From the IMG/VR virus record IMGVR_UViG_2563366800_000002: a stretch of DNA of 15,788 nt. One strand, written 5' to 3'. Below, piece by piece: positions 1 to 15,788 of this stretch. The stretch is from a virus (Duplodnaviria; Heunggongvirae; Uroviricota; Caudoviricetes). The stretch's first letter is position 1; each line of letters opens with the position of its first letter. The position numbers and the translations under genes were made by a program. A model generated the notes under the pieces. That model was not told where the DNA came from and searched no databases. It saw only the letters and a list, made by a program, of their open reading frames with translations.

Positions 1-1224
1 ATGGCTGGCACAAACAAACTGAGCGACAAAAAGCTAAAAGCATTGCTGGGTTCTGAGCGTGAAGCGCCGATCATGATTGCCGATGGTGAGGGGCTAAGCG
101 TTAAGGTCTCGAAGCAAGGTAACGTTAGCTGGGTATTTTCATACCGGTTGGGAGGAAGGGGTAGCAAACTCGAACGTTTAACGCTTGGCCGTTACCCTGA
201 TATGCCGCTAAAACTTGCGCGAGAAAAGCGGGAACAGTGTCGCCAGTGGCTGGCTGGTGGGCTTGATCCGAAAACTGAGATTGAGCTGAGCACAGAAGAA
301 ACGCTTAAGCCTGTAACGGTTAAAGACGCCCTGGAATATTGGTTGGTGAATTACGCCAGGAGAAAGCGCAGTGATGAGGCGTTGGTGAGGGCGCAGCTAC
401 GCAAGCATATTTACCCGCGACTTGGTCGTTATCCGATCACCAGATGTGAAACCCGCCATTGGGTGGCCTGTTTTGACGAAATAAACCAGACTAAACCCAT
501 GACCGCCGGCCGCATGTTCCAGATTTCTAAACAGGCGTTACGTTTCTGCAAGGTTCGCCGTTATGCTGCCAGTGATGCTCTGGCCTTTCTCACCATTCAG
601 GATGTAGGCCAGCCATCTGGTCAACGTGATCGCGTATTGTCAGATAGCGAGCTGGCTGATGTGTGGCGCTGTACAGATAGCGATGATCAGCAGCCGTATT
701 ATTCACGTCTGCTCAAAATGCTGGTGCTTTTTGGTGCGCGAACGATGGAAGTTCGCCTTTCTCGATGGTCAGAGTGGGATTTTACATCGTGGATTTGGAC
801 TGTACCGAAAGAGCATAGCAAAACCAGAGAGAAAATCGTGAGGTCGATACCTGAAGCTATACGCCCGTGGCTGGAAGAGTTAAAGCGCGAGACAGGGAAA
901 ACAGGTTTGTTACTGGGCGAAGATCGTACCCGTCAGGCTGTATCATTGAAAGGGCGCAGGCTTTTTAAAGATTTTCACCATAACGAGCCGTGGACACTTC
1001 ACGATCTGCGTCGGACGTTTTCTACGGGGCTAAACAATATGGGTATAGCACCGCATATAGTCGAGCTGCTGTTGGGCCATGCCTTGCCGGGAGTTATGGC
1101 GATTTATAACCGTAGTCTTTACTTACCGGAGAAGCTGGACGCGCTGAACAAGTGGTATGACCGCTTAGAACTTCTCGCGGGTAATCACTCTAATATCGTT
1201 ATTTTAAAGGCTGGTGAAAAATGA
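1..1224 (+). CDS. int: Tyrosine site-specific integrase, P4-type
   Basis: 407-aa ORF. C-terminal catalytic region has HDLRRTF, LLGH and the AIYNR tyrosine typical of tyrosine recombinases; N-terminal region resembles the arm-binding domain of P4-like integrases. Gene sits at the island edge. Confidence 0.9.
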   Translation: MAGTNKLSDKKLKALLGSEREAPIMIADGEGLSVKVSKQGNVSWVFSYRLGGRGSKLERLTLGRYPDMPLKLAREKREQCRQWLAGGLDPKTEIELSTEETLKPVTVKDALEYWLVNYARRKRSDEALVRAQLRKHIYPRLGRYPITRCETRHWVACFDEINQTKPMTAGRMFQISKQALRFCKVRRYAASDALAFLTIQDVGQPSGQRDRVLSDSELADVWRCTDSDDQQPYYSRLLKMLVLFGARTMEVRLSRWSEWDFTSWIWTVPKEHSKTREKIVRSIPEAIRPWLEELKRETGKTGLLLGEDRTRQAVSLKGRRLFKDFHHNEPWTLHDLRRTFSTGLNNMGIAPHIVELLLGHALPGVMAIYNRSLYLPEKLDALNKWYDRLELLAGNHSNIVILKAGEK

Positions 1225-2424: not shown

Positions 2425-3108
2425 ATGAAAAATATTAATGCCCTTAACGGGCAGGGATTCGCTCACCCTGTTGCCAGTAAAAGCGATATTAGCGTGCAGC
2501 TTAAACAGCTTCCTGCCGTCGAATTTCACGGGCAACGCGTGGTGACGTTCGCAATGATTGATACCGCGCACCAGCGACCTAAAGACACGGCTAAAAAGAC
2601 TTTTCAGCGTAATCGCACTCGCTTCATTGATGGTGAGGACTTTTTTATTGTCGGCGCGTCAGAGGTCGAATGGGGAGGGGCTGGATATTTAGACAGGGGC
2701 ATTAAACGCCCTGGCAAAAAAATGAACAGTCCGATACGTGGCCGCGTAACACTGATTACGGAATCAGGCTATCTGCTGCTGACCAAACCGTTTAACGATG
2801 ATTTGGCCTGGCAGGTACAGCGCCAGCTCGTGAAAACTTATTTCCGTTGCCCGGAGTTTGTCACTTTCCATCATGTGGATCTGCCGTCGCTCGAAGAACT
2901 GATCGCCATGCCGGTTACTGATGCGCAAAACGCCGTGACTCGTGCGGACAAGCATTCTAAGCAGTTTCATGGCTCACAGGGCAGTAATGGAATGAATCTC
3001 CGCAAGAAGGAACTCAAAGTTCTGCGTCCGGCGGTACGGCTGGTAGATGCGATGGGGCAGATTGATTTCGATAAATATGAGTGGGAGGCGGCACATGATC
3101 GCGCATAA
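2425..3108 (+). CDS. ORF6N-domain protein (antirepressor-like DNA-binding protein)
   Basis: 227-aa ORF. N-terminal segment (FHGQRVVTF..IDTAH...DTAKKTFQRNRTRFIDGEDFFIV ... GRVTLITESGYLLLTKPFNDDLAWQVQRQLVKTYF) fits the ORF6N pattern as recalled from memory. Confidence 0.65.
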   Translation: MKNINALNGQGFAHPVASKSDISVQLKQLPAVEFHGQRVVTFAMIDTAHQRPKDTAKKTFQRNRTRFIDGEDFFIVGASEVEWGGAGYLDRGIKRPGKKMNSPIRGRVTLITESGYLLLTKPFNDDLAWQVQRQLVKTYFRCPEFVTFHHVDLPSLEELIAMPVTDAQNAVTRADKHSKQFHGSQGSNGMNLRKKELKVLRPAVRLVDAMGQIDFDKYEWEAAHDRA

Positions 3109-3553: not shown

Positions 3554-3757
3554 ATGAGAAATCATACCATACACCCGCAAGGGCGGGACTCGTACAACCT
3601 GAATAAATACATCTGGCGTTTTATCGCCCTGAGCACGGCACAACCGCGCGTGATTCACATCGTGGCCACCAGCGAACAGGAAGCACGCCAGCAATCCCCG
3701 GCTGGCTGCGTGATGGTATTCGCCGCCCGTATTCGTCAGGGGGTGTGCCATGCCTGA
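3554..3757 (+). CDS. Small protein, possible Icd-like host cell division inhibitor; first gene of the primase operon
   Basis: GAGG 5 nt upstream of ATG 3554. The 67-aa product (MRNHTIHPQGRDSYNLNKYIWRFIAL...VMVFAARIRQG) resembles Icd-like proteins of P4-family prophages from memory only. Its end overlaps the next ORF start. Confidence 0.45.
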   Translation: MRNHTIHPQGRDSYNLNKYIWRFIALSTAQPRVIHIVATSEQEARQQSPAGCVMVFAARIRQGVCHA

Positions 3758-4070
3758 TATGTCAAATTACCAGTACCTGATTAATCCGCATTTTAACTGT
3801 GAGCATGATATTGCTAAAAAGGTTTATTCCGCTGCGGATGGGGCTACTGACAATATATCAATGGGTATTGCGTCAATTGGTAGCCTGATGTGGCATGCGT
3901 CAGAAAATGAGGAATATGACGAAAAGGCTATGCGCATTGATATGGGTAATATCGGTTTGTTACTGGCAATGCTTGGGCAGTTTGATATTTCGTTACGGTG
4001 CACCATTGAAAATGCCACAGATGCATTAAATGCCATAAAGAAAGCGAATACTGATTCAAATCGGGGATAA
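3750..4070 (+). CDS. Hypothetical small protein (positional analogue of P4 epsilon)
   Basis: 106-aa ORF whose ATG overlaps the upstream stop by 8 nt. No recognisable motif. Confidence 0.45.
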   Translation: MPDMSNYQYLINPHFNCEHDIAKKVYSAADGATDNISMGIASIGSLMWHASENEEYDEKAMRIDMGNIGLLLAMLGQFDISLRCTIENATDALNAIKKANTDSNRG

Positions 4071-4076
4071 ATAATC

Positions 4077-4376
4077 ATGAGAACATATTTATCTGGCTTG
4101 ACTGCCAGCGGTTATGCACACCCCAAAATTATCCCCGGCGCTATTTATTGGGATAAGAACGGCAACAGAGTAACAGTAAAATCGATAATGTTTGACCGTG
4201 TGTATTTTATTCGTGATGGCTATTCATTTCATAGCTCGCTGAACGTGGAGATCTTTATTTGCAGATTCCGGCGGGAAATCCCGCCTTCCAGAAATAACCA
4301 TGTGTCATGTATGGATGTTGATAAAAAACTACAGGAACTGAAAAACATGATTGCCGCGTGGAGAGAGCAGAAATGA
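4077..4376 (+). CDS. Hypothetical small protein, translationally coupled to the primase gene
   Basis: 99-aa ORF. Its TGA (4374-4376) overlaps the primase ATG (4373-4375) as ATGA. Confidence 0.45.
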   Translation: MRTYLSGLTASGYAHPKIIPGAIYWDKNGNRVTVKSIMFDRVYFIRDGYSFHSSLNVEIFICRFRREIPPSRNNHVSCMDVDKKLQELKNMIAAWREQK

Positions 4377-6496
4377 AAAAAGCGCCAAATTTAAAACACC
4401 AGCCACGTGACAAAATGACGGAAGTCATCATTTTTGCGGGTAGTGATGCGTGGGCACATGCGAATCAGTGGCAGGAACAGGACGGGCGACTGGCTGGCGA
4501 TAACGTGCCTCCTGTCTGGCTTGGAGAGCAACAACTTGCCGAACTGGACAACCTGCAAATCGTACCGGACGGACGCTATCGCGTGCGTCTCTATCAGGCG
4601 GGGTTATTGCGTCCGGGGCTTGTTAATACCATCGGGCAGAAACTGGCAGCGGCAGGTGTCAGGGATGCTGATTATTATCCTGAAGGAATGCACAGCCAGA
4701 AACGGGAGAACTGGCGCGAATATCTGGAACGTGAACGGGCAGAGCAGGCGGAAAAGAAAAAGGTAGTTGAACTGCCTGTAAAGAAAAAAGAGCCATGCTA
4801 TCAGGATGATGAATTAAAGCCCCGCGTTGAAAGTCGCGTCGATGGTGTTTTCTGGGTAACGCCCAAAGTGGATAAGCAGTCAGGCGAAATTATCCGGCCT
4901 GAGACGTGGTTATGTTCTCCGCTTGAACTACTGGGAACGGGGACGATCGGTAAAGAGCATTACCGCGTGATGCGCTGGAAAAAATTAGCAAACCATGAAG
5001 TCATCACAATGGCGATCCCGTGTGGTGGCATTGGCGACCGTGACGGCTGGCGGTTGCTTAAAGATCACGGGCTGAATGTGACAACAAACGGCAAATACAG
5101 GGCTATCCTGGCTGACTGGATGCAGTTAAGCGGAAGCCATGAGGAATGGCAGTTAAGCACAACAACGGGCTGGCATTTTGGCGCGTACATCATGCCGGAC
5201 GGTTCAATCATTGGTGATTCTGAAAAACCGATCCTGTTTACCGGAAAAAGTGCCGCTGTTAATGGCTATTCGGTTGCGGGTACGGCGGAGGGCTGGCGCG
5301 ACAGCGTGGCGCGGCTGGCTGGTGGCAATCCGTCCATGATGCTGGGTGTTGCCACGTCACTGGCAGCACCTTTGATTGGCCTTGTTGGTGCTGACGGCTT
5401 CGGGGTACATCTTTTCGAACAGTCATCGGCAGGGAAAACCACCACGCAGAACATCGCTTCAAGTTTATGGGGAGAGCCGGACGCGCAACGGCTGACCTGG
5501 TACGGAACGGCGTTAGGTATCGCCAACGAGGCCGAAGCACACAACGACGGGCTGTTACCCCTGGATGAAATAGGCCAGGCCGGAAACGCGCGGGAAGTGT
5601 CCACGTCAGCCTATACGCTGTTTAACGGTTCGGGGAAATTACAGGGGGCGAAGGACGGCGGCAACAGGGAGATCAAACACTGGCGCACGGTGGCAATCAG
5701 CACCGGAGAAATGGATGTTGAGACATTCCTCAAAAGTGAGGGGGTAAAAGTCAAAGCAGGCCAGCTTGTCCGTCTGCTTAACGTACCGATGGAGAAAGCC
5801 ACGCAATTTCACGAATACAGCACCGGAAAGGCGCACGCAGACGCGTTAAAGGATGCCTGGACTGCAAATCACGGGGCGGCGGGTCGTGAGTGGGTTAAAT
5901 GGCTGGCAGACCACCAGCAGGAGGCAAAGGACACGGTAAGGGAATGCCGCGAACGGTGGCACAACCTGATACCGGAGAGCTACGGCGAGCAGGTCCACCG
6001 CGTGGGGGAACGTTTCGCCATACTGGAGGCTGCGCTTGTGCTTTCCGGTCATGTAACTGGCTGGGCCGCGCAGGAATGCCGGGACGCAATACAGCATAAC
6101 TTTAATGCCTGGGTGAAGGAGTTCGGCACGGGTAACAGGGAATTTAAACAGATGGTTGAACAGGCTGAGGCGTTTTTGTCGTCGTTCGGGTTCAGTCGAT
6201 ACCTTCCTTACCCAAACAGTGATGAGCGTGATTTACCGATTAAAGACCTTGCCGGATACAGAAAGGGGAGTATCAGAAATGAAGATGATGAGTTCCGCTT
6301 TTACACGTTTCCTCATGTGTTTGAGGGTGAGATAGCACAGGGATTTAATCCGTCTCACTTTGCCCGCGCGTTGAGTGCTGCCGGAATGCTGGAAGCGGGT
6401 AACGATCGCCGTTACAAGAAAAAGGCGCTCGGCAAAATTGGGGGGAAGCAGCATGTTTTTTACGTGCTGATGTTCCAGCCTGAAGCAGAAGATTAA
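4373..6496 (+). CDS. Primase/helicase-type replication initiator (P4 alpha-like)
   Basis: About 707 aa from ATG 4373 (the track's 4358 is a GTG five codons upstream). Walker A-like SSAGKTTTQNIASSLWG in the central region; followed directly by an iteron array. Confidence 0.85.
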   Translation: MKKAPNLKHQPRDKMTEVIIFAGSDAWAHANQWQEQDGRLAGDNVPPVWLGEQQLAELDNLQIVPDGRYRVRLYQAGLLRPGLVNTIGQKLAAAGVRDADYYPEGMHSQKRENWREYLERERAEQAEKKKVVELPVKKKEPCYQDDELKPRVESRVDGVFWVTPKVDKQSGEIIRPETWLCSPLELLGTGTIGKEHYRVMRWKKLANHEVITMAIPCGGIGDRDGWRLLKDHGLNVTTNGKYRAILADWMQLSGSHEEWQLSTTTGWHFGAYIMPDGSIIGDSEKPILFTGKSAAVNGYSVAGTAEGWRDSVARLAGGNPSMMLGVATSLAAPLIGLVGADGFGVHLFEQSSAGKTTTQNIASSLWGEPDAQRLTWYGTALGIANEAEAHNDGLLPLDEIGQAGNAREVSTSAYTLFNGSGKLQGAKDGGNREIKHWRTVAISTGEMDVETFLKSEGVKVKAGQLVRLLNVPMEKATQFHEYSTGKAHADALKDAWTANHGAAGREWVKWLADHQQEAKDTVRECRERWHNLIPESYGEQVHRVGERFAILEAALVLSGHVTGWAAQECRDAIQHNFNAWVKEFGTGNREFKQMVEQAEAFLSSFGFSRYLPYPNSDERDLPIKDLAGYRKGSIRNEDDEFRFYTFPHVFEGEIAQGFNPSHFARALSAAGMLEAGNDRRYKKKALGKIGGKQHVFYVLMFQPEAED

Positions 6497-6520
6497 CTCC
6501 CCTGTGTGAGGTGAAAAGTT

Positions 6521-6643
6521 GCGGGTTATGCGGGTTATCCTGTGTGTAAGTGCATTAACTGTATGAATAAAAAGGAAATCAATAACCCGCACGTAACCCG
6601 CAAAACGGCAGTTATAACCCGCAAAAGTGCGATTATAACCCGC
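6521..6643. repeat. Iteron-type replication origin: GCGGGTTAT x2 (6521-6538), AT-rich spacer, then the complement ATAACCCGC in four copies (6582-6643)
   Basis: Read directly. Inverted arrangement of a 9-mer around an AT-rich core, immediately downstream of the primase gene. Confidence 0.6.
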
Positions 6644-6707
6644 AGAATTTCACCGTAAGGGTGTAAACAAGCGTAACTATCAACGTTAAAACCGGAGAAC
6701 AGACAGC

Positions 6708-7130
6708 ATGACAGCACAGATAGCAGCTTACGGGCGGCTGGTGGCTGACCCGCAGTTAAAGACCACCAGCAAGGGCACACAAATGGCTATGGCAAGCATG
6801 GCGGTCCCCCTGCCGTGCAATCAGGCAGATGACGGACAGGCGACGATGTGGTTATCCGTCCTGGCGTTTGGCAGACAGGCCGACGCACTGGCAAAACACC
6901 ACAAAGGCGAGCTGGTGAGCGTGGCGGGTAACATGCAGGTAAGCCAGTGGACAGGCCAGAACGGGGAAACGCGGCAGGGCTGGCAGGTTATCGCAGACAG
7001 CGTAATCAGTGCCAGAACGGCGCGACCTGGTGGCAAAAAAGGCCAGCAGGGTCAGGCTACTGACGCTCTAAATAGGGCTAAGCAACAGGCGGGGAATGAT
7101 GATCCATACGGGGATAACATACCCTTTTAG
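6708..7130 (+). CDS. ssb: Single-stranded DNA-binding protein (SSB-like)
   Basis: GGAGA RBS then ATG 6708. 140-aa product with a Gly/Gln-rich linker and an acidic C-terminal tip DDPYGDNIPF resembling the SSB DDDIPF tail. Confidence 0.7.
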   Translation: MTAQIAAYGRLVADPQLKTTSKGTQMAMASMAVPLPCNQADDGQATMWLSVLAFGRQADALAKHHKGELVSVAGNMQVSQWTGQNGETRQGWQVIADSVISARTARPGGKKGQQGQATDALNRAKQQAGNDDPYGDNIPF

Positions 7131-7147
7131 CGATAACAGGGGGATAC

Positions 7148-7396
7148 ATGCCAGTGACATTTGAAGAAGTTCAGCAACATAAAAAGTTTCATGGTATTGA
7201 TGATCTGGAAACCACGACAGCAAAAAAATATCGCCGTCTGCTTTCTTCCGATGCGTTATTTGTTGTGGATCATCATGATTTTCTGCGCAGCTCACTGACC
7301 GGGGAAATTTTCGCAACCAACCGTGAGCAGGTGGAAGCGATGATCGAATATTTGTGGAAAATAAGGCGCAGAATGCGCGATCCCGTGAAACAGTAA
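7148..7396 (+). CDS. Hypothetical small protein
   Basis: 82-aa ORF with a purine-rich RBS; last gene before a terminator. No recognisable motif. Confidence 0.4.
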   Translation: MPVTFEEVQQHKKFHGIDDLETTTAKKYRRLLSSDALFVVDHHDFLRSSLTGEIFATNREQVEAMIEYLWKIRRRMRDPVKQ

Positions 7397-7670: not shown

Positions 7671-8816
7671 ATGAAGAAATTAATCGAACTCCGCCAGCAA
7701 AAAAACGCCCTGAAAAACCAGATGCGATCCCTGCTGGAAAAAGCCGACAGTGAAAACCGCAGCCTGAACGATGACGAGGGCAAACAGTTTGATGAACTGC
7801 GTGCAAAAGCCGATTCCCTCGACACAGAAATTTCCCGTCTTGAAGCTGTTGCGGATGAAGAACGTAACCAGCCTGGTGTTTCCGTCGAAGAGAAAATCAC
7901 CAAAGATGAACTGCGCTCTTACATTCTGACCGGGGAAACCCGCAACCTGTCCGGCAGTGTCCCGGCTGATGGTGGCTATACCGTTATTCCCGAGCTGAAT
8001 AAAGAGATTATGCGCCAGCTTGCCGATGAATCGGTGATGCGCAAAATCTGTACCGTTAAAACCATTCACAGCAATGAATTTAAGCAACCGGTTTCCGCTG
8101 GTGGCGCGGTGGTTGAGCATGGCGAGGAAGGTGCGGCACGTAACCAGACGGCAACGCCGAAACTGAACGAAGTCAGCATCCGCCTGTATCCGATCTACGC
8201 TTACCCGAAAACCACTCAGGAAATTATCGATTTTTCCGAAGTCGATATTATGAGCTGGTTATCTTCTGAAATTGGCGACACTTTCGTTGATACCGAAGAA
8301 ACGGATCTGGTTTCCGGTGACGGCGAGAAAAAAGCTAAAGGTTTCCTGGCGTTCCCGCGCACTGCGGATAACGACAAAACCCGTCCTTTCGGTACGCTCC
8401 AGACGAAAAAAGTTACTGGCAGTCTCAGCGCCGACATGCTGATTGACCTGAAATTTACGCTGCGCAATAAGTACCGCAAAAAAGCTGTATGGGTGATGAA
8501 CTCAAATACAGCCGCCTCCGCACAAAAACTGAAAAATGCCACTGGTGATTACATCTGGCGCGATCGTTTACAGGCTGGTGATCCTGATTCTCTGCTGGGG
8601 CTTCCGGTTGAATATCTGGAATTTATGCCGGACGGTGTGATTGCAGTAGGTGACTTTAAGCGCGGTTATTTCATCGTTGACCATGAAACCGGTACGCGTA
8701 CCCGTCCGGACTTCAGCGAACCCGGATTCATTAACATCTATACCCAGAAATATCTGGGCGGTGGTGTGGTGGATTCGAACGCCATCAAGATTCTGGAAAT
8801 TCAGGCTGGTGAGTAA
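7671..8816 (+). CDS. Major capsid protein, HK97-like fold, with N-terminal coiled-coil scaffold-like domain
   Basis: 381-aa ORF. Charged, heptad-like N-terminus (first 70 aa) then a capsid-like body; followed by a strong terminator and a prohead protease gene. Confidence 0.8.
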   Translation: MKKLIELRQQKNALKNQMRSLLEKADSENRSLNDDEGKQFDELRAKADSLDTEISRLEAVADEERNQPGVSVEEKITKDELRSYILTGETRNLSGSVPADGGYTVIPELNKEIMRQLADESVMRKICTVKTIHSNEFKQPVSAGGAVVEHGEEGAARNQTATPKLNEVSIRLYPIYAYPKTTQEIIDFSEVDIMSWLSSEIGDTFVDTEETDLVSGDGEKKAKGFLAFPRTADNDKTRPFGTLQTKKVTGSLSADMLIDLKFTLRNKYRKKAVWVMNSNTAASAQKLKNATGDYIWRDRLQAGDPDSLLGLPVEYLEFMPDGVIAVGDFKRGYFIVDHETGTRTRPDFSEPGFINIYTQKYLGGGVVDSNAIKILEIQAGE

Positions 8817-8822
8817 TGAGCA

Positions 8823-8845
8823 AGGAGGCTTCGGCCTCCTTTTTT
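8823..8845 (+). terminator. Intrinsic terminator (AGGAGGC - TTCG loop - GCCTCCT, then TTTTT)
   Basis: Perfect 7-bp GC-rich stem with a TTCG loop and a T-run, immediately after the capsid stop; likely partial read-through attenuation. Confidence 0.6.
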
Positions 8846-8864
8846 AGCTTCAGGGGATACACCG

Positions 8865-9425
8865 ATGAAAAACACCGATTTTGAAATCCGCACATCTGAA
8901 CTGACCGCCAGCAATAAAAAGCTGGTGGGGTATGCCGTTCGCTGGAACAGCCTTTCAGAAATTATCTGGGACGAATTCCGCGAACAGTTCACGCCGGGGG
9001 CTTTTGCTGACTATCTGGCGGCGGGTAATGATGTGCGCTGCCTGTATGAGCATGACTATACCCAACTGCTGGGGCGCACCAAATCCGGCACTCTGGTACT
9101 GACTGAGGATAACACCGGGTTACGTTTTGAACTGACACCGCCGGATACCCAGCTTGGAAAAGATGTGCTTACGCTGGTGGAGCGTGGCGACATTACAGGA
9201 ATGAGCTTTGGTTTTCGCGCATTATGCGAGGAGTGGAGTATCGCGCAAAAACCGTATTTGCGTACCGTAACCGCCGCTGAACTCCGTGAAATCACAATAA
9301 CGTCGATGCCTGCTTATCCAGAATCTGGCGTGGAGATTGCCCACCGTTCGTTGTTTGCACAGCACCCTGAATTATGCCCGACAGGAAATAATCGTCATCG
9401 CTGGTCTGAGCTGGCGGGGTTGTGA
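8865..9425 (+). CDS. Prohead maturation protease, HK97 family
   Basis: 186-aa ORF with AGGGGA RBS. N-terminal pattern (ELTASNKKLVGYAVRWNSLS...GAF...LYEHD...LGRTKSGTLVLTEDNTGL...ERGDITGMSFGF) is typical of HK97-family proteases. Confidence 0.8.
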   Translation: MKNTDFEIRTSELTASNKKLVGYAVRWNSLSEIIWDEFREQFTPGAFADYLAAGNDVRCLYEHDYTQLLGRTKSGTLVLTEDNTGLRFELTPPDTQLGKDVLTLVERGDITGMSFGFRALCEEWSIAQKPYLRTVTAAELREITITSMPAYPESGVEIAHRSLFAQHPELCPTGNNRHRWSELAGL

Positions 9426-9426
9426 T

Positions 9427-10641
9427 ATGTGGTGGCCTTTTAGTCGTAAAAAAAGCGAGCAGCGTAACCTGTCCATTGATGATTTTCTGGCGCTGTCCGG
9501 CGTACCGAATACCGGATCCGGAGAATATGTTTCTGCCGGGACGGCTGAATCATTGCCTGCAGTGATGAACGCGGTTTCTGTCATCGCTGAGGCGGTGGCC
9601 ACGATGCCGTGTTATCTGTATCTGGTACGTAATGACAAGGGCAGGGAGGCGCGGGAATGGCTGGACAGTCACCCGGTAGATATTCTGCTGAATGAGCAGC
9701 CTAATTCGTGCCAGACACCTTACCAGTTTAAACGCACAATGATGCGTCACTGCCTGCTGAACGGTAACGCCTATGCGGTTATTGAGTGGGGGCAAGACGG
9801 GCAGCCAAAATCACTTCATCCTTATGCGCCGGGGTGTGTTGTACCGGAACGCACAGGCGCACACAAATACCGCTATACCATCACCGAACCCTATACAGGA
9901 ACGGTGCGCACGTATTTACAGGAAGAAGTTCTGCATCTCCGCTATGCCTCGGATGATGGCTTTCTGGGGCGTTCCCCTGTCACGATTTGCCGTGAGGCGC
10001 TTGGGCTTGGCCTTGCTCAACAGCGCCACGGAGCCAGCATTATGAAAGATGGCATGATGGCGGCAGGGATTATCACGTCAGGCGAATGGCTGGACGGCGT
10101 GAAAGGTAAACAGGCATTAGATGCTCTGGAACGCTACAAGGGGGCGAAAAATGCCGGAAAAACGCCAATCCTTGAAGGGGGCATGGATTACAAGCAACTG
10201 GGAATGAGTAACCAGGATGCGGAATGGCTGGCCTCCCGTCGCTTCTCCATTGAAGACATCGCCCGCATGTTCAACGTATCGCCTATTTTTCTGCAGGAAT
10301 ACAGCAACAGCACCTACAGCAATTTCAGCGAGGCAAGCCGCGCGTTTCTGACCATGACAATGCGCCCATGGCTGGCGAACTTCGAACAGCAAATCAAGGC
10401 CGCTTTGCTGGTGGCTTCTCCCGTACCTGGTACCCGTTATCTGGTTGAGTTTGATTCAGCCGATTTATTACGCGCCACACCCACCGAACGTTATGCCACG
10501 TATGAGAAAGGGATTAAGAACGGGATCATGAATCCGAACGAAGCCCGTGAGCGTGAGGGTATGCCGCCGCGTGAAGGTGGTGATGAGTTCAGCCAGGCAT
10601 GGAAACAGACTGTGGAAATTAAAGGGAGAAAAGATGAGTGA
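9427..10641 (+). CDS. Portal protein, HK97 family
   Basis: ATG at 9427 directly after the protease stop (the track's 9337 start would overlap the protease by 90 nt). About 404 aa, placed next to protease and capsid. Confidence 0.8.
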   Translation: MWWPFSRKKSEQRNLSIDDFLALSGVPNTGSGEYVSAGTAESLPAVMNAVSVIAEAVATMPCYLYLVRNDKGREAREWLDSHPVDILLNEQPNSCQTPYQFKRTMMRHCLLNGNAYAVIEWGQDGQPKSLHPYAPGCVVPERTGAHKYRYTITEPYTGTVRTYLQEEVLHLRYASDDGFLGRSPVTICREALGLGLAQQRHGASIMKDGMMAAGIITSGEWLDGVKGKQALDALERYKGAKNAGKTPILEGGMDYKQLGMSNQDAEWLASRRFSIEDIARMFNVSPIFLQEYSNSTYSNFSEASRAFLTMTMRPWLANFEQQIKAALLVASPVPGTRYLVEFDSADLLRATPTERYATYEKGIKNGIMNPNEAREREGMPPREGGDEFSQAWKQTVEIKGRKDE

Positions 10642-10936
10642 AGCCAGAATTACACCTGATGAAGTCAGGGCACATCTTCGACTTGATGATGATTTATCCG
10701 GTGAAGGCGAACTTCTGAAAATGTATACCGATGCGGCGCTGGAAGCCTGCCAGAAGCATATCGGGAAACGTTTTGAAGACGGGCTGGAATTTACCCCGGC
10801 AATGCGTGTTGGTTGCCTGATGTACATCGCTTTCCTGTACGAGAACCGGGAAGCGGTTTCACCAGTGGAGCACTCGGAACTGCCTATGGCTATTTCTGCG
10901 CTCTGGTCAGTTTATCGTGACGTAGGGGTGTACTGA
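10634..10936 (+). CDS. Head-tail connector/adaptor protein (gp6-like)
   Basis: AGGGAG RBS; ATG 10634 overlaps the portal stop. About 100 aa starting MSEARITPDEVRAHLRLDDD, matching the gp6-like connector N-terminal pattern. Confidence 0.65.
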   Translation: MSEARITPDEVRAHLRLDDDLSGEGELLKMYTDAALEACQKHIGKRFEDGLEFTPAMRVGCLMYIAFLYENREAVSPVEHSELPMAISALWSVYRDVGVY

Positions 10937-11376
10937 TGCCGTGGCAACCATTAAGGCGATGCACTGAGCCTGGCTGTAATAAGCGCGTGAAGTCCGGCAA
11001 GTGTGAAGAGCACAGGCGGGCTGCATGGCGTGCAGAGGATGCCAGACGGGGACACCGCCGCGCGCGCGGGTATTCCCGACAGTGGGACAAATACCGCGCC
11101 CTGTACCTGAGCAAAAACCCGTTATGCGTGCGTTGTCTGGCTAAGGGGATTTATACGCCAGCTCTTGTGGTGGATCACATCATTCCCATCAATGGCGGCG
11201 GTGATGTTCTCTTCTGGCCTGAGTGGAATCACCAGGCATTGTGCCAGACGTGCCACAACCGTAAGACGACACGGGAAGATCCAGCCACGAAAGCAAACCG
11301 TAAAGCGGGCATGTATCGCGAGCAGGAAGAACGGGCGGCACACCGTAACGACTGGATGTATGGCGATGATGACTGA
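10936..11376 (+). CDS. HNH endonuclease (packaging-associated)
   Basis: 146-aa ORF with Cys-rich N-terminus and the HNH core VVDHIIPINGGGDVLFWPEWNHQALCQTCHNRKT. Sits just upstream of the terminase genes as in HK97-like cos packaging modules. Confidence 0.85.
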   Translation: MPWQPLRRCTEPGCNKRVKSGKCEEHRRAAWRAEDARRGHRRARGYSRQWDKYRALYLSKNPLCVRCLAKGIYTPALVVDHIIPINGGGDVLFWPEWNHQALCQTCHNRKTTREDPATKANRKAGMYREQEERAAHRNDWMYGDDD

Positions 11377-11545
11377 ACAGGAGCAAACCAGGCTGATACG
11401 TGGACTGATAAGGCAGCGTGACACATGGAAGACACAGGAGACAGAGCACAAAGCCAACAGGACAGGGCGCACAAAACGCACCACAGCGAAGCGATTAACC
11501 GACCGTGACCGCGAGGTCATGGAATGTTTTCGCAATCGCTGGTGA
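11366..11545 (+). CDS. Possible small basic protein (59 aa) overlapping the HNH stop; uncertain
   Basis: Tandem ATG at 11366 and 11369, ORF to TGA at 11545; Arg/Lys/Thr-rich product. No clear RBS; could be a non-coding part of the packaging site. Confidence 0.2.
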   Translation: MMTEQEQTRLIRGLIRQRDTWKTQETEHKANRTGRTKRTTAKRLTDRDREVMECFRNRW

Positions 11546-11553
11546 GGCCGTCA

Positions 11554-11613
11554 GAGGGGGTGGGGGTGGTTTTCAGGACGAAACCGTCCCTGCCGGACAC
11601 CGACCGCCCCCTC
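11554..11613. other. G-rich nested dyad symmetry between HNH and TerS; candidate cos / terminase recognition region
   Basis: GAGGGGGTGG (11554-11563) pairs with CCGCCCCCTC (11604-11613); inner CAGGACG ... CGTCCCTG; followed by T-rich AAATTTTTGTG. The position matches where cos lies in HK97-like genomes. Confidence 0.3.
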
Positions 11614-11663
11614 AAATTTTTGTGCACGGTAATTTTTTTGAAAATAATTGGGCGAAAAAAAAC

Positions 11664-12020
11664 ATGGCAAGACCACCAAAAGCCCCCGCTTACCTGGATG
11701 AAATCGCGGTCAGGCAGTGGAAGGAAAAATCGCGCCAGCTTTCCGGGCGGGAAGACCTTACCCCCGCCGACTGGAGCAATCTGGAACTGTATTGTGTTAA
11801 CTACTCCATATACCGCAAAGCCGTCGAAGACCTTGCGACGCGCGGGTTCAGCATTGTTAACAGTCAGGGCAGCGAGAGCAGAAACCCCGCCCTGAGCGCA
11901 AAGGCTGACGCAGAAAGAATAATGATCAAAATGGCTTCTTTGCTGGGTTTTGACCCGGTAAGCCGCCGCAGAAATCCACCGGAAACAGAGGAAGAGGACG
12001 AGCTTGACCGCCTGGCATGA
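11664..12020 (+). CDS. terS: Terminase small subunit, P27 family
   Basis: Product from ATG 11664 starts MARPPKAPAYLDE and ends ...LLGFDPVSRRRNPPE, fitting the P27-family TerS pattern. The track's longer ORF from 11505 runs through the dyad region and was not used. Confidence 0.75.
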   Translation: MARPPKAPAYLDEIAVRQWKEKSRQLSGREDLTPADWSNLELYCVNYSIYRKAVEDLATRGFSIVNSQGSESRNPALSAKADAERIMIKMASLLGFDPVSRRRNPPETEEEDELDRLA

Positions 12021-13665
12021 GTACGCAGAAGGCGTAAAAAACGGCAAAATTACGGCCTGTAAACGACTGAAACAGGCCGTTAAACGGTATTTTTCTGACC
12101 TTGAAAACCCCCTTTACACGTTCGATCCGGAGGTCGTGGAGCGGTTTATTGCCTTTTCCAGGGTGTGTCCGCACGTAAAAGGCGCAATGCGCGGTAGCCC
12201 CATTGAGCTGGAGCCGTGGCAGCAGTTCGCCTTTGCGTGCATCCTGGGCTTTAAGGTTAAGGCCACCGGACGGCGCAAATACACCAGCGCATTCATTGAA
12301 GTACCTCGAAAAAATGCCAAATCCACGGTCGCCGCTATCCTGGCTAACTGGTTTCTGGTTATGGAAAACGGGCAGCAGGATATTTACACCGCCGCCGTGA
12401 GTCGTGATCAGGCGCGGATCGTGTTTGATGATGCGCGTCAGATGTGCCTTTTATCCCGACCGTTACGAAAGCGGGTAAATATTCAGGCACACAAGGTGAT
12501 ACACCCGAAAACCAACAGTCTGTTAAAGCCACTGGCAGCAAAAGCAGCAACCATTGAAGGTACAAACCCGAGTCTTGCCATTGTGGATGAATATCACCTG
12601 CACCCTGACAACGGGGTTTATTCCGCGCTTGAACTGGGAATGGGGGCACGCCCGGAGGGGCTGTTATTTGCCATCACCACATCGGGGAGCAACGTTGTTT
12701 CAGCCTGTAAACAACACTACGACTATTGCTGCCAGATACTGGATGGTGAAGAGGTGAACGAATCCATGTTCGTTCTGATTTATGAGCTGGATGATGAAAG
12801 CGAGGTTGACGATCCGGCGATGTGGATAAAGGCGAATCCCAATATCGATGTTTCCGTAGATCGTGAAAAACTGGCCTCAACCATCCAGAAAGCGCGGGGT
12901 ATTCCGTCGCAGTGGGTGGAAATGCTCACCAAGCGATTCAATATCTGGTGTCAGGGGGCTACGCCGTGGATGGGTAACGGTGCATGGGCTGAGTGCGCCG
13001 GAACGTTCACGGAGGAAGATTTACACGGTCAGGAGTGTTACGCGGGGCTTGATTTATCATCCACAAGCGACATCTCCAGCGTGTGCTATGCCTTTCCGGT
13101 TGGTAAAACCATTATGCTGGTTTCTCGTCACTATCTGCCGGAATTTCAGCTACAGAACCCCGCCAATAAAAACCGCGCCATCTATCGCCAGTGGGCAAAG
13201 GCGGGCTGGATACGCACAACACCGGGTGACTGCATTGATTATGACCGTATCCGTGATGACATCATGGCGGATGCAGAGAATTTCAATATCAGGCTGGTGG
13301 GCTTTGATACGTGGAACGCCACGCACCTGAGAACGCAGTTACAGGGGGCAGGCTTTGAGGTGGAGCCGTTCCCTCAAACCTACCTTCGTTTCAGTCCGGC
13401 GGCGAAATCGTTCGAGGTTTTTGTTAACCGGAAGGTGATTGTGCATCGTGGTGATCCGGTGCTGGCCTGGTCAATGAGTAATGTTGTGATGCAGAGTGAC
13501 GCGAACGCCAATATCAAGCCGAACAAGAAAAAATCATCCAACAAGATAGACCCGAGCGTTGCGGCGCTGATGGCGTTTGGCACATTCCAGGCTGAGCATG
13601 AGGAATTTGCATTTGATATGAGCGACAGCCAGAAAGAGCGACTAGCGGCATTTGATGGGGTATGA
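12004..13665 (+). CDS. terL: Terminase large subunit
   Basis: 553-aa ORF. N-terminus (W.EYAEGV.NGKI.A ... IELEPWQQF) and ATPase region are typical of TerL. The only in-frame start near the N-terminus is TTG at 12004, overlapping terS by 17 nt. Confidence 0.8.
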   Translation: MTAWHEYAEGVKNGKITACKRLKQAVKRYFSDLENPLYTFDPEVVERFIAFSRVCPHVKGAMRGSPIELEPWQQFAFACILGFKVKATGRRKYTSAFIEVPRKNAKSTVAAILANWFLVMENGQQDIYTAAVSRDQARIVFDDARQMCLLSRPLRKRVNIQAHKVIHPKTNSLLKPLAAKAATIEGTNPSLAIVDEYHLHPDNGVYSALELGMGARPEGLLFAITTSGSNVVSACKQHYDYCCQILDGEEVNESMFVLIYELDDESEVDDPAMWIKANPNIDVSVDREKLASTIQKARGIPSQWVEMLTKRFNIWCQGATPWMGNGAWAECAGTFTEEDLHGQECYAGLDLSSTSDISSVCYAFPVGKTIMLVSRHYLPEFQLQNPANKNRAIYRQWAKAGWIRTTPGDCIDYDRIRDDIMADAENFNIRLVGFDTWNATHLRTQLQGAGFEVEPFPQTYLRFSPAAKSFEVFVNRKVIVHRGDPVLAWSMSNVVMQSDANANIKPNKKKSSNKIDPSVAALMAFGTFQAEHEEFAFDMSDSQKERLAAFDGV

Positions 13666-13955
13666 CGAGAATGACTGAAACCGATCTACTAAAAATAATT
13701 CGCTGCGTTACCGGAGTCTGCCAGGCAACAGGCAAACCGGAGGCCAAGCAGCCGGATACCGTCACCGCTGAAAATTACGCGCGTGTGGTGGCTAAGGTGA
13801 TGCGCCGTGACGGTATTGAGCTTAACGGCGTGGATATGCGCAACATACGAACCAGAGTCCTTGAGTTGCTGGCATACCGTCGCCGTTCTCAACAACGGAG
13901 GGAGAGCGCGAAAAATACTTACCAGTGGAAGAAGCCGGAACGGTTGCGGCGGTAG
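13662..13955 (+). CDS. Hypothetical protein, last gene of the packaging operon
   Basis: 97-aa ORF; ATG 13662 overlaps the terL TGA (ATGA). Basic C-terminus (RRRSQQRRESAK). No recognisable motif. Confidence 0.4.
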   Translation: MTRMTETDLLKIIRCVTGVCQATGKPEAKQPDTVTAENYARVVAKVMRRDGIELNGVDMRNIRTRVLELLAYRRRSQQRRESAKNTYQWKKPERLRR

Positions 13956-14294
13956 ATTCCTGATATTCAGGAAAACCACGAATCTGTGGGTTTTACTGGC
14001 GCGGTTACGGCGGTGACACGCACCGAGGCAGAACAATTACCGTAGGTTAAAGCGACAGTATTCACACCAAAGGCAGAAATTAGCGGTTAACGTAACTGAC
14101 TGATATTTTCAGGAACAGCCAACGGCTGAGGCCGGAGCTATAAGAATAGCTTTGGGTACAGTCCTCAGTTTTGAGGGATGTTAACCAACTGAATAATAAG
14201 CAAACCTCAAAATTGAGTTTTGTATCTGCCTGAGTTATTTCTGTGCTAACTTGTTGATATTCCCGACGGCCCAAAAATGGGTTGGCTGGTGGGT

Positions 14295-14412
14295 GAGTTG
14301 CAGATTTGCAACTCGACCATGAAACTACGGAAACTACCCGTAGTTTGGGTAGTAAGAGCAACACCCAGATTTTGGGGCTTACTCGCGATCCCCAAATAAA
14401 GGGGATCGGTGG
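14295..14412. repeat. 118-bp structured repeat, copy A
   Basis: Six mismatches to copy B over 118 aligned positions, no indels. Starts with the near-palindrome GAGTTGCAGATTTGCAACTC and contains further inverted repeats (AAACTACGG / CCGTAGTTT; CCCC / GGGG). Confidence 0.75.
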
Positions 14413-14442
14413 CATCACTGGCCCCACTTTCCTGATGTGTTT

Positions 14443-14594
14443 GCGGGTTATTTGGGAGAGGTTGCGGGTTATTTTGAATGACTTGCGGGTTACGATTTGG
14501 CTAACATTTGAACATGTCATTTTTCAACGCATTGATATTAAATAATAAAAAATACTTAGCACGCGAAGATAACCCGCTAACCCGCATAACCCGC
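14443..14594. repeat. Second iteron cluster: GCGGGTTAT / GCGGGTTAC x3 (14443-14493), AT-rich spacer, complement ATAACCCGC-type x3 (14569-14594)
   Basis: Same 9-mer and the same inverted layout as the origin at 6521-6643, about 7.9 kb away. Confidence 0.55.
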
Positions 14595-14728
14595 ACTGTT
14601 TTGTATATATATACGAAAAATTGCATTCAGGAGGGGTAGCAAAATCCCTACCGTCTCTTATCTCTTGGAGTGCCCGCCTCTTCGAATTTTAACCCCCGTG
14701 AAATTACAAAATTTCCCTGACTGATGGC

Positions 14729-14846
14729 GAGTTGCAGATCTGCAACTCGACTATGAAACTACGGAAACTACCCGTAGTTTGGGTAGTAAGAGTAACACCC
14801 AGATTTTGGGGCTTACTTGCGATACCCAAATACAGGGGATCGGTGG
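14729..14846. repeat. 118-bp structured repeat, copy B
   Basis: Direct repeat of 14295-14412, offset 434 bp. Here the first 20 bp form a perfect palindrome GAGTTGCAGATCTGCAACTC. Confidence 0.75.
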
Positions 14847-15251
14847 AAGAAATATCGTTTCTCATATGTGAGTACCGAGGGCGGAATTCCGCCTTCGGTT
14901 ACTTATTGTGCTCATGCACAGGGAGGGGCGGGTCAAATCTCTGTACCCTGACGTCTTCCGGACTGCCCGCTCCATCGATTTTTTATACCCGCGAAAAATG
15001 CTTCACGCTGGTGGGCATGATGCGTGGGGATGCTGATAATGGGTTATTGTGGGATAGATGTCTCATACAATAAGAGATTCATAATTTGCTTTTTAATACT
15101 GTTATACTCGCCGCCTTTCTACCGTGCTCATGCTTTCGCATATTTTCGGCTTTGTGCAATAATCCGTATATCACTCGGTGTATCACTTTTAGCTAAAATG
15201 CATGGCGTGTTTGTTAATTTAACTGATTAAAATCAGTGGGATATAAAGTTT

Positions 15252-15788
15252 ATGAAACATATTGTAGAAGTAATGATCCCCGAAGCGGAGATTAAAGCGC
15301 GTATCGCCGAACTGGGTCGTCAGATTACTGAGCGTTACAAAGACAGCGGCAGCGATATGGTGCTGGTGGGTCTGCTGCGTGGCTCATTTATGTTTATGGC
15401 GGACCTGTGCCGTGAAGTTCAGGTATCTCATGAAGTCGACTTTATGACCGCCTCCAGCTACGGTAGCGGCATGTCCACCACCCGTGATGTGAAAATCCTC
15501 AAAGATCTGGATGAAGATATCCGTGGCAAGGACGTGCTGATTGTTGAAGATATCATCGACTCGGGGAATACACTGTCGAAAGTGCGTGAGATCTTAAGCC
15601 TGCGCGAACCGAAGTCGTTGGCGATTTGTACGCTGCTGGATAAACCGTCCCGTCGTGAAGTGAACGTCCCGGTTGAATTTATCGGTTTCTCGATCCCGGA
15701 TGAGTTTGTGGTGGGTTACGGCATTGATTACGCACAGCGTTACCGTCATCTGCCGTATATCGGCAAAGTGATTCTGCTGGACGAGTAA
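15252..15788 (+). CDS. hpt: Hypoxanthine phosphoribosyltransferase (host chromosomal gene)
   Basis: 178-aa product with the PRTase motif [13 protein letters not shown] and full-length resemblance to enterobacterial Hpt as recalled; host-like codon usage; TAA at the window end. Confidence 0.9.

Follow-up and report, generated by a model that had tools for sequence, protein, structure and literature searches.

The IMG/VR virus record IMGVR_UViG_2563366800_000002, analysed here over its full length of 15,788 nucleotides (nt; hereafter the window), probably represents an integrated capsid-forming phage-inducible chromosomal island (cf-PICI) of the EcCIEDL933 lineage, located in the 5' end of the hpt gene of Escherichia coli and with a life cycle assigned by homology. 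We place it in this lineage because all but one of the EcCIEDL933 packaging genes have full-length homologues here in the same order, and because its capsid protein, including the delta domain, matches that of this prototype cf-PICI from E. coli O157:H7 (Alqurainy et al., 10.1101/2022.09.08.507074; capsid PDB 9gyi). The cf-PICIs are an established family and the presence of one here is ordinary in itself. What is new is a variant without the adaptor, i.e. the head-closure gene, and the novelty is modest, as the family is known and "Type B" elements have already been catalogued by SatelliteFinder.

Packaging module and head-tail interval

The head and packaging module occupies positions 7671–13665 on the plus strand, where Pfam and PHROG profile matches bear out every gene named in the first-pass annotation (capsid, protease, portal, connector, HNH, TerS, and TerL). 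It is collinear with the EcCIEDL933 module at 56%–94% protein identity. The first gene encodes an HK97-fold major capsid protein (7671–8816; PF05065, E = 6e-61), which is 74.5% identical to its EcCIEDL933 counterpart and matches the solved chain of the T=4 capsid (PDB 9gyi) with E = 2.5e-185. The scaffold-like N-terminus remarked on in the first-pass annotation is real, as residues 1–93 constitute a delta (scaffold) domain with 41% charged residues that aligns to the segment cleaved off in EcCIEDL933, and the experimentally determined mature N-terminus of the latter (S93) aligns to S94 of the window protein. Downstream follow a prohead serine protease of the S78 family (8865–9425; PF04586, E = 7e-46; 61% identical to EcCIEDL933), the portal protein (9427–10641; PF04860, E = 5e-93; 81%), and a gp6-like head-tail connector (adaptor Ad1; 10634–10936; PF05135, E = 4e-5; PHROG 40 "head-tail adaptor Ad1", E = 2e-28; 56%). 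When compared to PDB sequences, the connector family profile retrieved an "adaptor protein" (E = 2e-7) and HK97 gp6 (3JVO, E = 1e-4); this profile was used because the single-sequence AlphaFold2 model of the connector was too poor for a fold search (mean predicted local distance difference test score of 49.5).

An HNH endonuclease, which in HK97-type cos packaging serves as a terminase cofactor, is encoded at 10936–11376 (PF01844; 84% identical to EcCIEDL933). It is followed by a conserved open reading frame (ORF) of 61 amino acids (aa) at 11360–11545 (PHROG 3173), which shares 77% identity with the small EcCIEDL933 ORF located between HNH and terS; this ninth gene of the module had been overlooked in the first-pass annotation. 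Its EcCIEDL933 homologue appears, by gene order, to be gene 1792, whose mutation severely reduces transfer (10.1101/2022.09.08.507074). The small terminase TerS (P27/Terminase_4 family; PF05119, E = 5e-23; 89%) is present, but as a 118-aa protein encoded at 11664–12020 instead of the long ORF starting at 11505 that had first been assigned to it. The large terminase TerL with its ATPase and nuclease (12004–13665; PF20441, E = 3e-51; PF03354, E = 4e-26; 94%) completes the module. Between the small ORF and terS lies a conserved block (GGGGGTGGGGG ... CCGCCCCCTCAAATTTTT ... ATTTTTTTGAAAATA; 11556–11646), which in a 19-locus alignment is the most conserved stretch of the HNH–terS interval and exceeds the upstream coding DNA in conservation. 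HK97-type phages have the arrangement hnh-cos-terS, and from its position the block may thus be the cos site. A 15,474-bp IMG/VR contig checked for cos termini ends exactly at a gene boundary and appears to be trimmed.

The island has much in common with phage HK97, namely the HK97-fold delta-domain capsid, the S78 protease, the portal, the gp6-family connector, HNH-dependent cos packaging, a P27-type TerS, and TerL. In contrast to HK97, the island has a rearranged gene order, a small genome, and a capsid that is presumably T=4, and it lacks genes for a gp7-type closure protein, a tail, or lysis. The absence of tail and lysis genes within ~15 kb, claimed in the first-pass annotation, is borne out by a PHROG scan, in which none of 20 window ORFs fell into a tail or lysis category. 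An intact HK97-like prophage would have contiguous tail, lysis, and immunity modules, a layout that is found in a true prophage of E. coli rl0044 (L101 21677–41600) but not in the window.

The module deviates from that of EcCIEDL933 at one point. In EcCIEDL933, the interval between the portal and HNH genes encodes a 112-aa "phage head closure protein" (PF05521) followed by the 98-aa connector, whereas in the window it holds the gp6-like connector alone. The portal and connector genes overlap by 8 nt, which leaves no space for a head-closure gene between them, and the HNH gene lies right behind the connector. A tblastn search with the EcCIEDL933 closure protein gave no match in the window, and neither did a six-frame search with a profile made from 13 cf-PICI closure proteins, even at E <= 10 (positive controls 5e-49 and 1e-46); the same profile found no match in the closure-less relatives, including their flanks. 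Likewise, PF05521 had no match among the small ORFs of the window, whereas the closure proteins of EcCIEDL933 and of strain E423 match it at 7e-23 and 3e-19. Judged from the sequence, the PF05521 head-closure/adaptor gene is therefore absent from the island.

We also considered where a closure function could be hidden. A fusion is excluded because the portal, connector, and HNH proteins have the same lengths as in EcCIEDL933. The small ORFs of unknown function at 7148–7396, 11360–11545, and 13662–13955 have no PF05521 or closure-profile match and are not replacements, since each has a homologue in EcCIEDL933, which has a closure gene of its own. Another candidate, the ORF at 3750–4070, matches neither a Pfam family nor the closure profile, PF05521 included.

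Adaptor and connector are among the genes that define cf-PICIs, and an exchange of the pair alters the range of phage tails that fit (He et al., 10.1101/2025.02.11.637232). In EcCIEDL933, all packaging genes except 1792 are absolutely required for transfer (Alqurainy et al., 10.1101/2022.09.08.507074); going by gene order, the closure gene is one of them. The adaptor (PF05521) is one of the 11 core components of SatelliteFinder and part of the search criteria of He et al., and SatelliteFinder accepts elements with 10 of the 11 components as "Type B" cf-PICIs, many of which were noted as probably functional. Lacking the adaptor, the island is thus a cf-PICI by the SatelliteFinder definition, but not by the stricter gene list of He et al. 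In the literature searched, which did not cover the supplementary Type B lists of SatelliteFinder, we found no description or test of adaptor-less cf-PICIs.

Spread and upkeep of the closure-less form

To be assigned to the connector clade of the window, complete genomes had to contain a match of at least 90% DNA identity over the full length of the gene. Of 5426 complete E. coli genomes, 143 (~2.6%) carry this clade, and portal and HNH genes were annotated at the match in all 11 sampled rows of these genomes. Other connector clades occur in a further 387 of the 5426 genomes, and about a quarter of the genomes in which a connector was detectable with this query belong to the window clade. All 45 IMG/VR loci whose connector is at least 89% identical are closure-less. 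Different integrases accompany the four integration sites of the lineage (gcd/hpt, cspD/clpS, a major facilitator superfamily gene/proX, and a prophage terL), and one and the same connector protein (WP_001287546.1) is found together with more than one integrase and with either of two capsid alleles that are only 68% identical to each other. Within the clade, the ratio of nonsynonymous to synonymous substitution rates (dN/dS) of the connector is 0.04–0.23, indicating purifying selection.

Between the portal and HNH genes, the head-tail region forms a hypervariable cassette. The module of strain E423 is 88%–94% identical to that of the window at the DNA level, yet it carries a closure gene and a connector of another clade. 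The two sequences differ from the 3' end of the portal gene to ~100 bp into the connector, a segment of 467 bp in E423 versus 125 bp here. The closure-less E. coli connectors form a long separate branch, and their first third is remodelled compared to that of E423, the nearest closure-encoding relative. In a tree of portal and TerL, closure-less islands occur ~7 separate times among closure-encoding relatives, including in Pantoea, although this count is rough as it derives from a neighbour-joining tree of a query-biased sample and a recombining gene set.

The capsid gene is mosaic, and two alleles of it exist on otherwise 98%–100% identical modules. The allele of E. coli KSC9 (L001 15929–17098) encodes 389 aa and has nearly unchanged residues over the first ~66 positions of the delta domain, whereas its shell is only ~68% identical to the window allele, suggesting a recombination breakpoint inside the capsid gene.

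The adaptor loss could be taken to have stranded the island as a transfer-defective derivative that is kept by vertical inheritance. The gene in question is, by gene order, essential for the transfer of EcCIEDL933, and the frameshifted ssb gene of the close relative L020 shows that some decay does occur in the group. This scenario is nevertheless unlikely, as the eight other packaging genes are intact and of full length, the connector is under purifying selection, and the same connector protein occurs at different attachment (att) sites with different integrases and capsid alleles. Moreover, the clade has reached 143 genomes and the closure-less state arose repeatedly. Based on its frequency, its four integration sites, the selection on the connector, and its recurrence in several cf-PICI lineages, the closure-less form is, as far as genome comparison can tell, a maintained and mobile variant and not a product of decay.

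Left arm, right end, and integration site

The left arm of the island starts with a tyrosine integrase (1–1224, plus strand as for all genes described here; PF13356, PF00589, PF22022; PHROG integrase), marking the left end of the island in the window. The PHROG large-terminase family phrog_9 weakly matches integrase residues 262–395, and we suspect that this stems from terminase-integrase fusion calls at terL-embedded islands inside that profile. A DUF6387 accessory gene (1221–2024; PF19924, E = 2e-29) separates the integrase from an AlpA-type regulator/excisionase (2120–2404; PF05930; PHROG 2790, E = 2e-39), the induction switch of PICIs, which is needed for the induction of EcCIEDL933. It is followed by an ORF6N-domain, anti-repressor-like protein (2425–3108; PF10543; PHROG anti-repressor, E = 4e-34). 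The DUF6387 and ORF6N slots are variable accessory positions, with other genes found there in EcCIEDL933 and several relatives, and no PADLOC match to a defence system was obtained among seven accessory or unknown ORFs including these two. Further downstream are an Icd-like small protein (3563–3757; PHROG 6196; 52% identical to that of EcCIEDL933), a DUF4222 protein (4077–4376; PF13973) that has the same position upstream of pri-rep in EcCIEDL933, and the DUF927 primase-replicase (Pri-Rep; 4373–6496; PF06048, E = 8e-48; PHROG DNA primase, E = 2e-180; 89% identical to EcCIEDL933).

Right behind pri-rep, at 6515–6645, pattern positions, sequence, and alignment reveal an iteron cluster of direct TTGCGGGTTA and inverted TAACCCGC copies around AT-rich DNA, with a second such cluster at 14441–14597. 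The origin of PICIs is usually located directly after pri-rep, and the cluster at 6515–6645 is the probable replication origin on sequence grounds. The right-end cluster is the copy closest to the EcCIEDL933 origin region (L002 8242–8393); we dropped it as the origin because the same iterons are also found directly after pri-rep. The space before the capsid gene is filled by a single-strand DNA-binding protein (SSB; 6708–7130; PF00436) and a conserved 82-aa protein (7148–7396; PHROG 1957), with a 43% identical EcCIEDL933 homologue at the same position.

Behind TerL, a conserved 97-aa protein (13662–13955; PHROG 1561; 66% identical to its EcCIEDL933 homologue) is followed by a non-coding block (14292–14846), which was delimited by sequence and folding and consists of two direct 121-nt repeats (14292–14412 and 14726–14846, 94% identical) around the second iteron cluster. 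The repeat folds as RNA into several hairpins on either strand (z-scores of −5.2 to −6.4), and a two-sided change in one hairpin (GATCCCC/GGGGATC vs. GATACCC/GGGTATC) fits an RNA stem or a DNA palindrome. Of the 5426 complete E. coli genomes, 707 contain the 121-nt element, which is found close to the 97-aa right-end ORF; almost all of the matches listed lack an annotation, as does the entire 1.3 kb from the last ORF to hpt in relatives. At Rfam gathering thresholds, nothing was found in the whole window; the right end gave only chance-level matches and the 121-nt element none. DNA related to the 97-aa ORF, like the 121-nt element, also occurs in many E. coli genomes without an adjacent packaging-module match, which we assume to represent other PICIs.

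The first base of the window is that of the integrase start codon and the last is that of the hpt stop codon. In relatives with a 100% identical integrase (E. coli KSC9, L001, and B1172, L003), int is preceded by gcd at a distance of ~400 bp, and the genes hpt, can, and yadG lie on the downstream side. The packaging module of B1172 is 99.9% identical to that of the window. A comparison of the empty K-12 site with both junctions of L001, L003, and L019 defined the att core as a 23-bp K-12 overlap, TATGAAACATA(C/T)TGTAGAAG..., over the first hpt codons. The attR core (15251–15273) overlaps the first 22 nt of hpt, whereas attL would lie outside the window, ~170–190 bp upstream of it between gcd and int, as placed from L001 and L003 (3145–3167 in L003). 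Measured from attL to attR, the island of L003 has 15,706 bp; that of the window comes to ~15.4 kb, as 261 bp of L003 are absent here. Tail genes just outside the window, belonging to the same element, had been named beforehand as an observation that would refute the satellite reading. None adjoin the island, which is flanked by the core genes gcd and hpt/can, judged from the relatives with an identical integrase and not from the upstream flank of the window itself.

Integration also affects the target gene. The first 19–22 nt of hpt are rebuilt, changing residue 4 of Hpt from Thr to Ile (MKHT to MKHI), and the insertion moves the native promoter and the ribosome-binding region of hpt ~15.4 kb away from the gene and puts island DNA in their place (window 15240–15275). 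Expression of hpt must therefore rely on sequence of the island right end.

It is highly improbable that the window is a decayed HK97-like prophage of which the head half is left. Every module gene does have phage homologues in PHROGs, but the capsid, protease, portal, connector, HNH, TerS, and TerL genes follow the cf-PICI and not the phage order, a PICI-type left arm is present (int, AlpA, DUF4222, and a DUF927 Pri-Rep that shares 89% identity with the EcCIEDL933 protein), precise att junctions enclose a 15.4–15.7 kb unit flanked by core genes, and the PHROG scan of the window ORFs revealed no tail, lysis, or repressor remnants. The cf-PICI reading already made in the first-pass annotation accordingly holds, given the PICI-type left arm, the collinear packaging module, a capsid 75% identical to the 9gyi protein, the length of ~15.4 kb, and the lack of tail and lysis genes. 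Of the features used to recognise cf-PICIs, we found an integrase at one end, a regulation module (AlpA in Gram-negative islands), a replication module with Pri-Rep and downstream iterons, a capsid, prohead protease, and portal of its own, a gp6-like connector, its own HNH, TerS, and TerL, and a size of 15.4–15.7 kb, within the ~10–18 kb of criterion i of He et al. Lysis genes and a tail module, which such islands must not contain, are missing, with the flanks judged from relatives.

Overall, the window shares with EcCIEDL933 int, alpA, DUF4222, DUF927 pri-rep, ssb, capsid, protease, portal, connector, HNH, the small ORF, TerS, TerL, and the 97-aa ORF, in addition to a similar size, the iterons, and the cos block. 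The two differ in the 112-aa PF05521 protein, which only EcCIEDL933 has, in the connector (only 56% identical), in the integrase (47% identical) and att site (roxA/phoQ region vs. the hpt 5' end here), and in the accessory genes, which are DUF6387 and ORF6N in the window and others in EcCIEDL933. Classical Gram-negative PICIs such as EcCICFT073 have the left arm of int, alpA, and pri-rep in common with the window, but lack genes for a capsid, a portal, or TerL and make use of remodelled helper capsids (He et al., 10.1101/2025.02.11.637232).

Head completion and helper dependence

By homology, the life cycle of the island would begin when a helper phage turns AlpA on, followed by excision and by replication, in which the DUF927 primase-replicase would act on the TTGCGGGTTA iterons. 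After expression of the late operon, the capsid protein with its own delta-domain scaffold would assemble on the island portal into a small procapsid, probably with T=4 geometry, and the S78 protease would cut off capsid residues 1–93. TerS, TerL, HNH, and the 61-aa ORF product may then recognise the cos block at ~11556–11646, so that one ~15.4-kb island genome would be packaged. Finally, the gp6-like connector ring would bind the portal, and a head-closure protein of the helper may then bind this ring before the helper tail joins.

In necks of the HK97/SPP1 type, a ring of the gp6/gp15 family binds the portal, after which a stopper of the gp7/gp16 family closes the channel, retains the DNA, and contacts the tail. 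Since a gp6-family connector sits on the portal side, that of the island more likely has to fit a helper closure protein than the tail itself. We infer that a closure protein taken from the helper along with the tail is the most likely completion step, and we give this about an even chance of being correct. Somewhat more tentative is the wider proposal that a common, recurrent sub-lineage of cf-PICIs gave up its own closure protein and completes its capsids with the closure protein and tail of the helper.

A functional cf-PICI could instead need tails only, if the gp6-like ring alone retains the DNA and docks to the tail-completion end of some helper tails. The repeated loss of the closure gene in several lineages and the long separate branch of closure-less connectors, with their first third remodelled compared to E423, agree with such a mechanism, as does the reported lack of interaction between island proteins and their phage counterparts (He et al., 10.1101/2025.02.11.637232). 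However, this would depart from the general build of HK97/SPP1 necks, in which a stopper follows the gp6/gp15 ring, and the window connector (100 vs. 98 aa) aligns end to end with the connectors of closure-encoding islands and has no added domain. In addition, EcCIEDL933 required its packaging genes for transfer, the closure gene included by gene order. As the connector has no added domain and closure donors are at hand, we favour a helper closure protein and regard docking by the ring alone as rather unlikely.

Potential donors are HK97-like prophages with closure-less islands inside them. They encode a closure protein that shares ~50% identity with its EcCIEDL933 counterpart, gp10-/gp17-type neck proteins, and a full tail, making such an embedding prophage a plausible source of the closure protein. 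In L101, the head-closure gene of the prophage occupies 25331–25669. In the close relatives L101 (4278–21483, E. coli rl0044) and L100 (4279–21484, E. coli O177:H21), the cf-PICI splits the prophage terL into N-terminal and C-terminal fragments, and the same embedding is seen in the IMG/VR loci L047, L050, L051, L053, L055–L057, L059, L060, and L085. The portal, capsid, connector, head-closure, and tail genes of this HK97-like lambdoid prophage lie directly behind the island, and the terL-island junction occurs in 34 complete genomes. The location inside a prophage late gene resembles that of helper-embedded PICIs (HE-PICIs), whereas the window copy is chromosomal at hpt. The HE-PICI sites described include A:Terminase_1, C:CLP_protease, capsid gene E, and V:Phage_TTP_13, with neither terL nor capsid-forming islands in the text (PMC10111431). 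The terL-embedding prophage of L100 and L101 could be their helper.

Several points weigh against this completion step. For the island and its closure-less relatives, induction, the formation of small capsids, and transfer are only predicted; helper-dependent induction, island-sized capsids made of own proteins, and transfer with helper tails have been demonstrated only for EcCIEDL933, EcCIGN02175, and KpCIDSM30104. Furthermore, the interactions found for cf-PICI proteins were restricted to other cf-PICI proteins and did not extend to the phage counterparts (He et al., 10.1101/2025.02.11.637232), which argues against an easy use of a phage closure protein. The connectors of closure-less islands are 33%–35% identical to that of the embedding prophage, compared to 36% for those of closure-encoding islands, and thus give no sequence sign of mimicry of the prophage connector. 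Finally, closure-less and closure-encoding islands both occur in the same prophage type, so the embedding does not tell the two island types apart.

The similarity of connectors also proved unsuitable as a predictor of the helper, as the nearest connectors of true phages (SfI, SfII, and phiP27), in line with the overall low sequence identity of the window to such phages, are only 34%–40% identical to that of the window, and closure-less and closure-encoding islands do not differ in similarity to the connector of the embedding prophage. According to the first-pass annotation, the connector at 10634–10936 would determine which helper tails fit; this cannot be upheld for the connector alone, since in the tested cf-PICIs tail compatibility was mapped to the pair of adaptor and connector (He et al., 10.1101/2025.02.11.637232). 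The accompanying claim that the island takes only tails from a helper stands as far as tails are concerned, for which it has no genes of its own, but "only" is doubtful because the PF05521 adaptor is missing here. The tail-piracy cf-PICIs EcCIGN02175 and KpCIDSM30104 (10.1101/2025.02.11.637232), compared here by published description and not by sequence, belong to the same family and share the packaging-module concept and the hypervariable head-tail cassette with the window, but carry both adaptor and connector where the window has the connector only.

Among phage satellites, cf-PICIs have been described as the most abundant, and it has been proposed that they spread across species as DNA-filled, tail-less capsids that join free tails. 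If closure-less islands do take the closure protein from their helper, their tail-less capsids may lack stability or competence once outside the cell, and helper range would be set by the fit of the connector to a phage closure protein, unlike the "tail piracy" of the cf-PICIs tested so far. The existence of a conserved and mobile lineage without the adaptor means that either a gp6-like ring suffices alone or the helper supplies one more protein. Whichever holds, the answer would sharpen the rules on which phages can spread such islands and would bear on the universality of extracellular tail capture.

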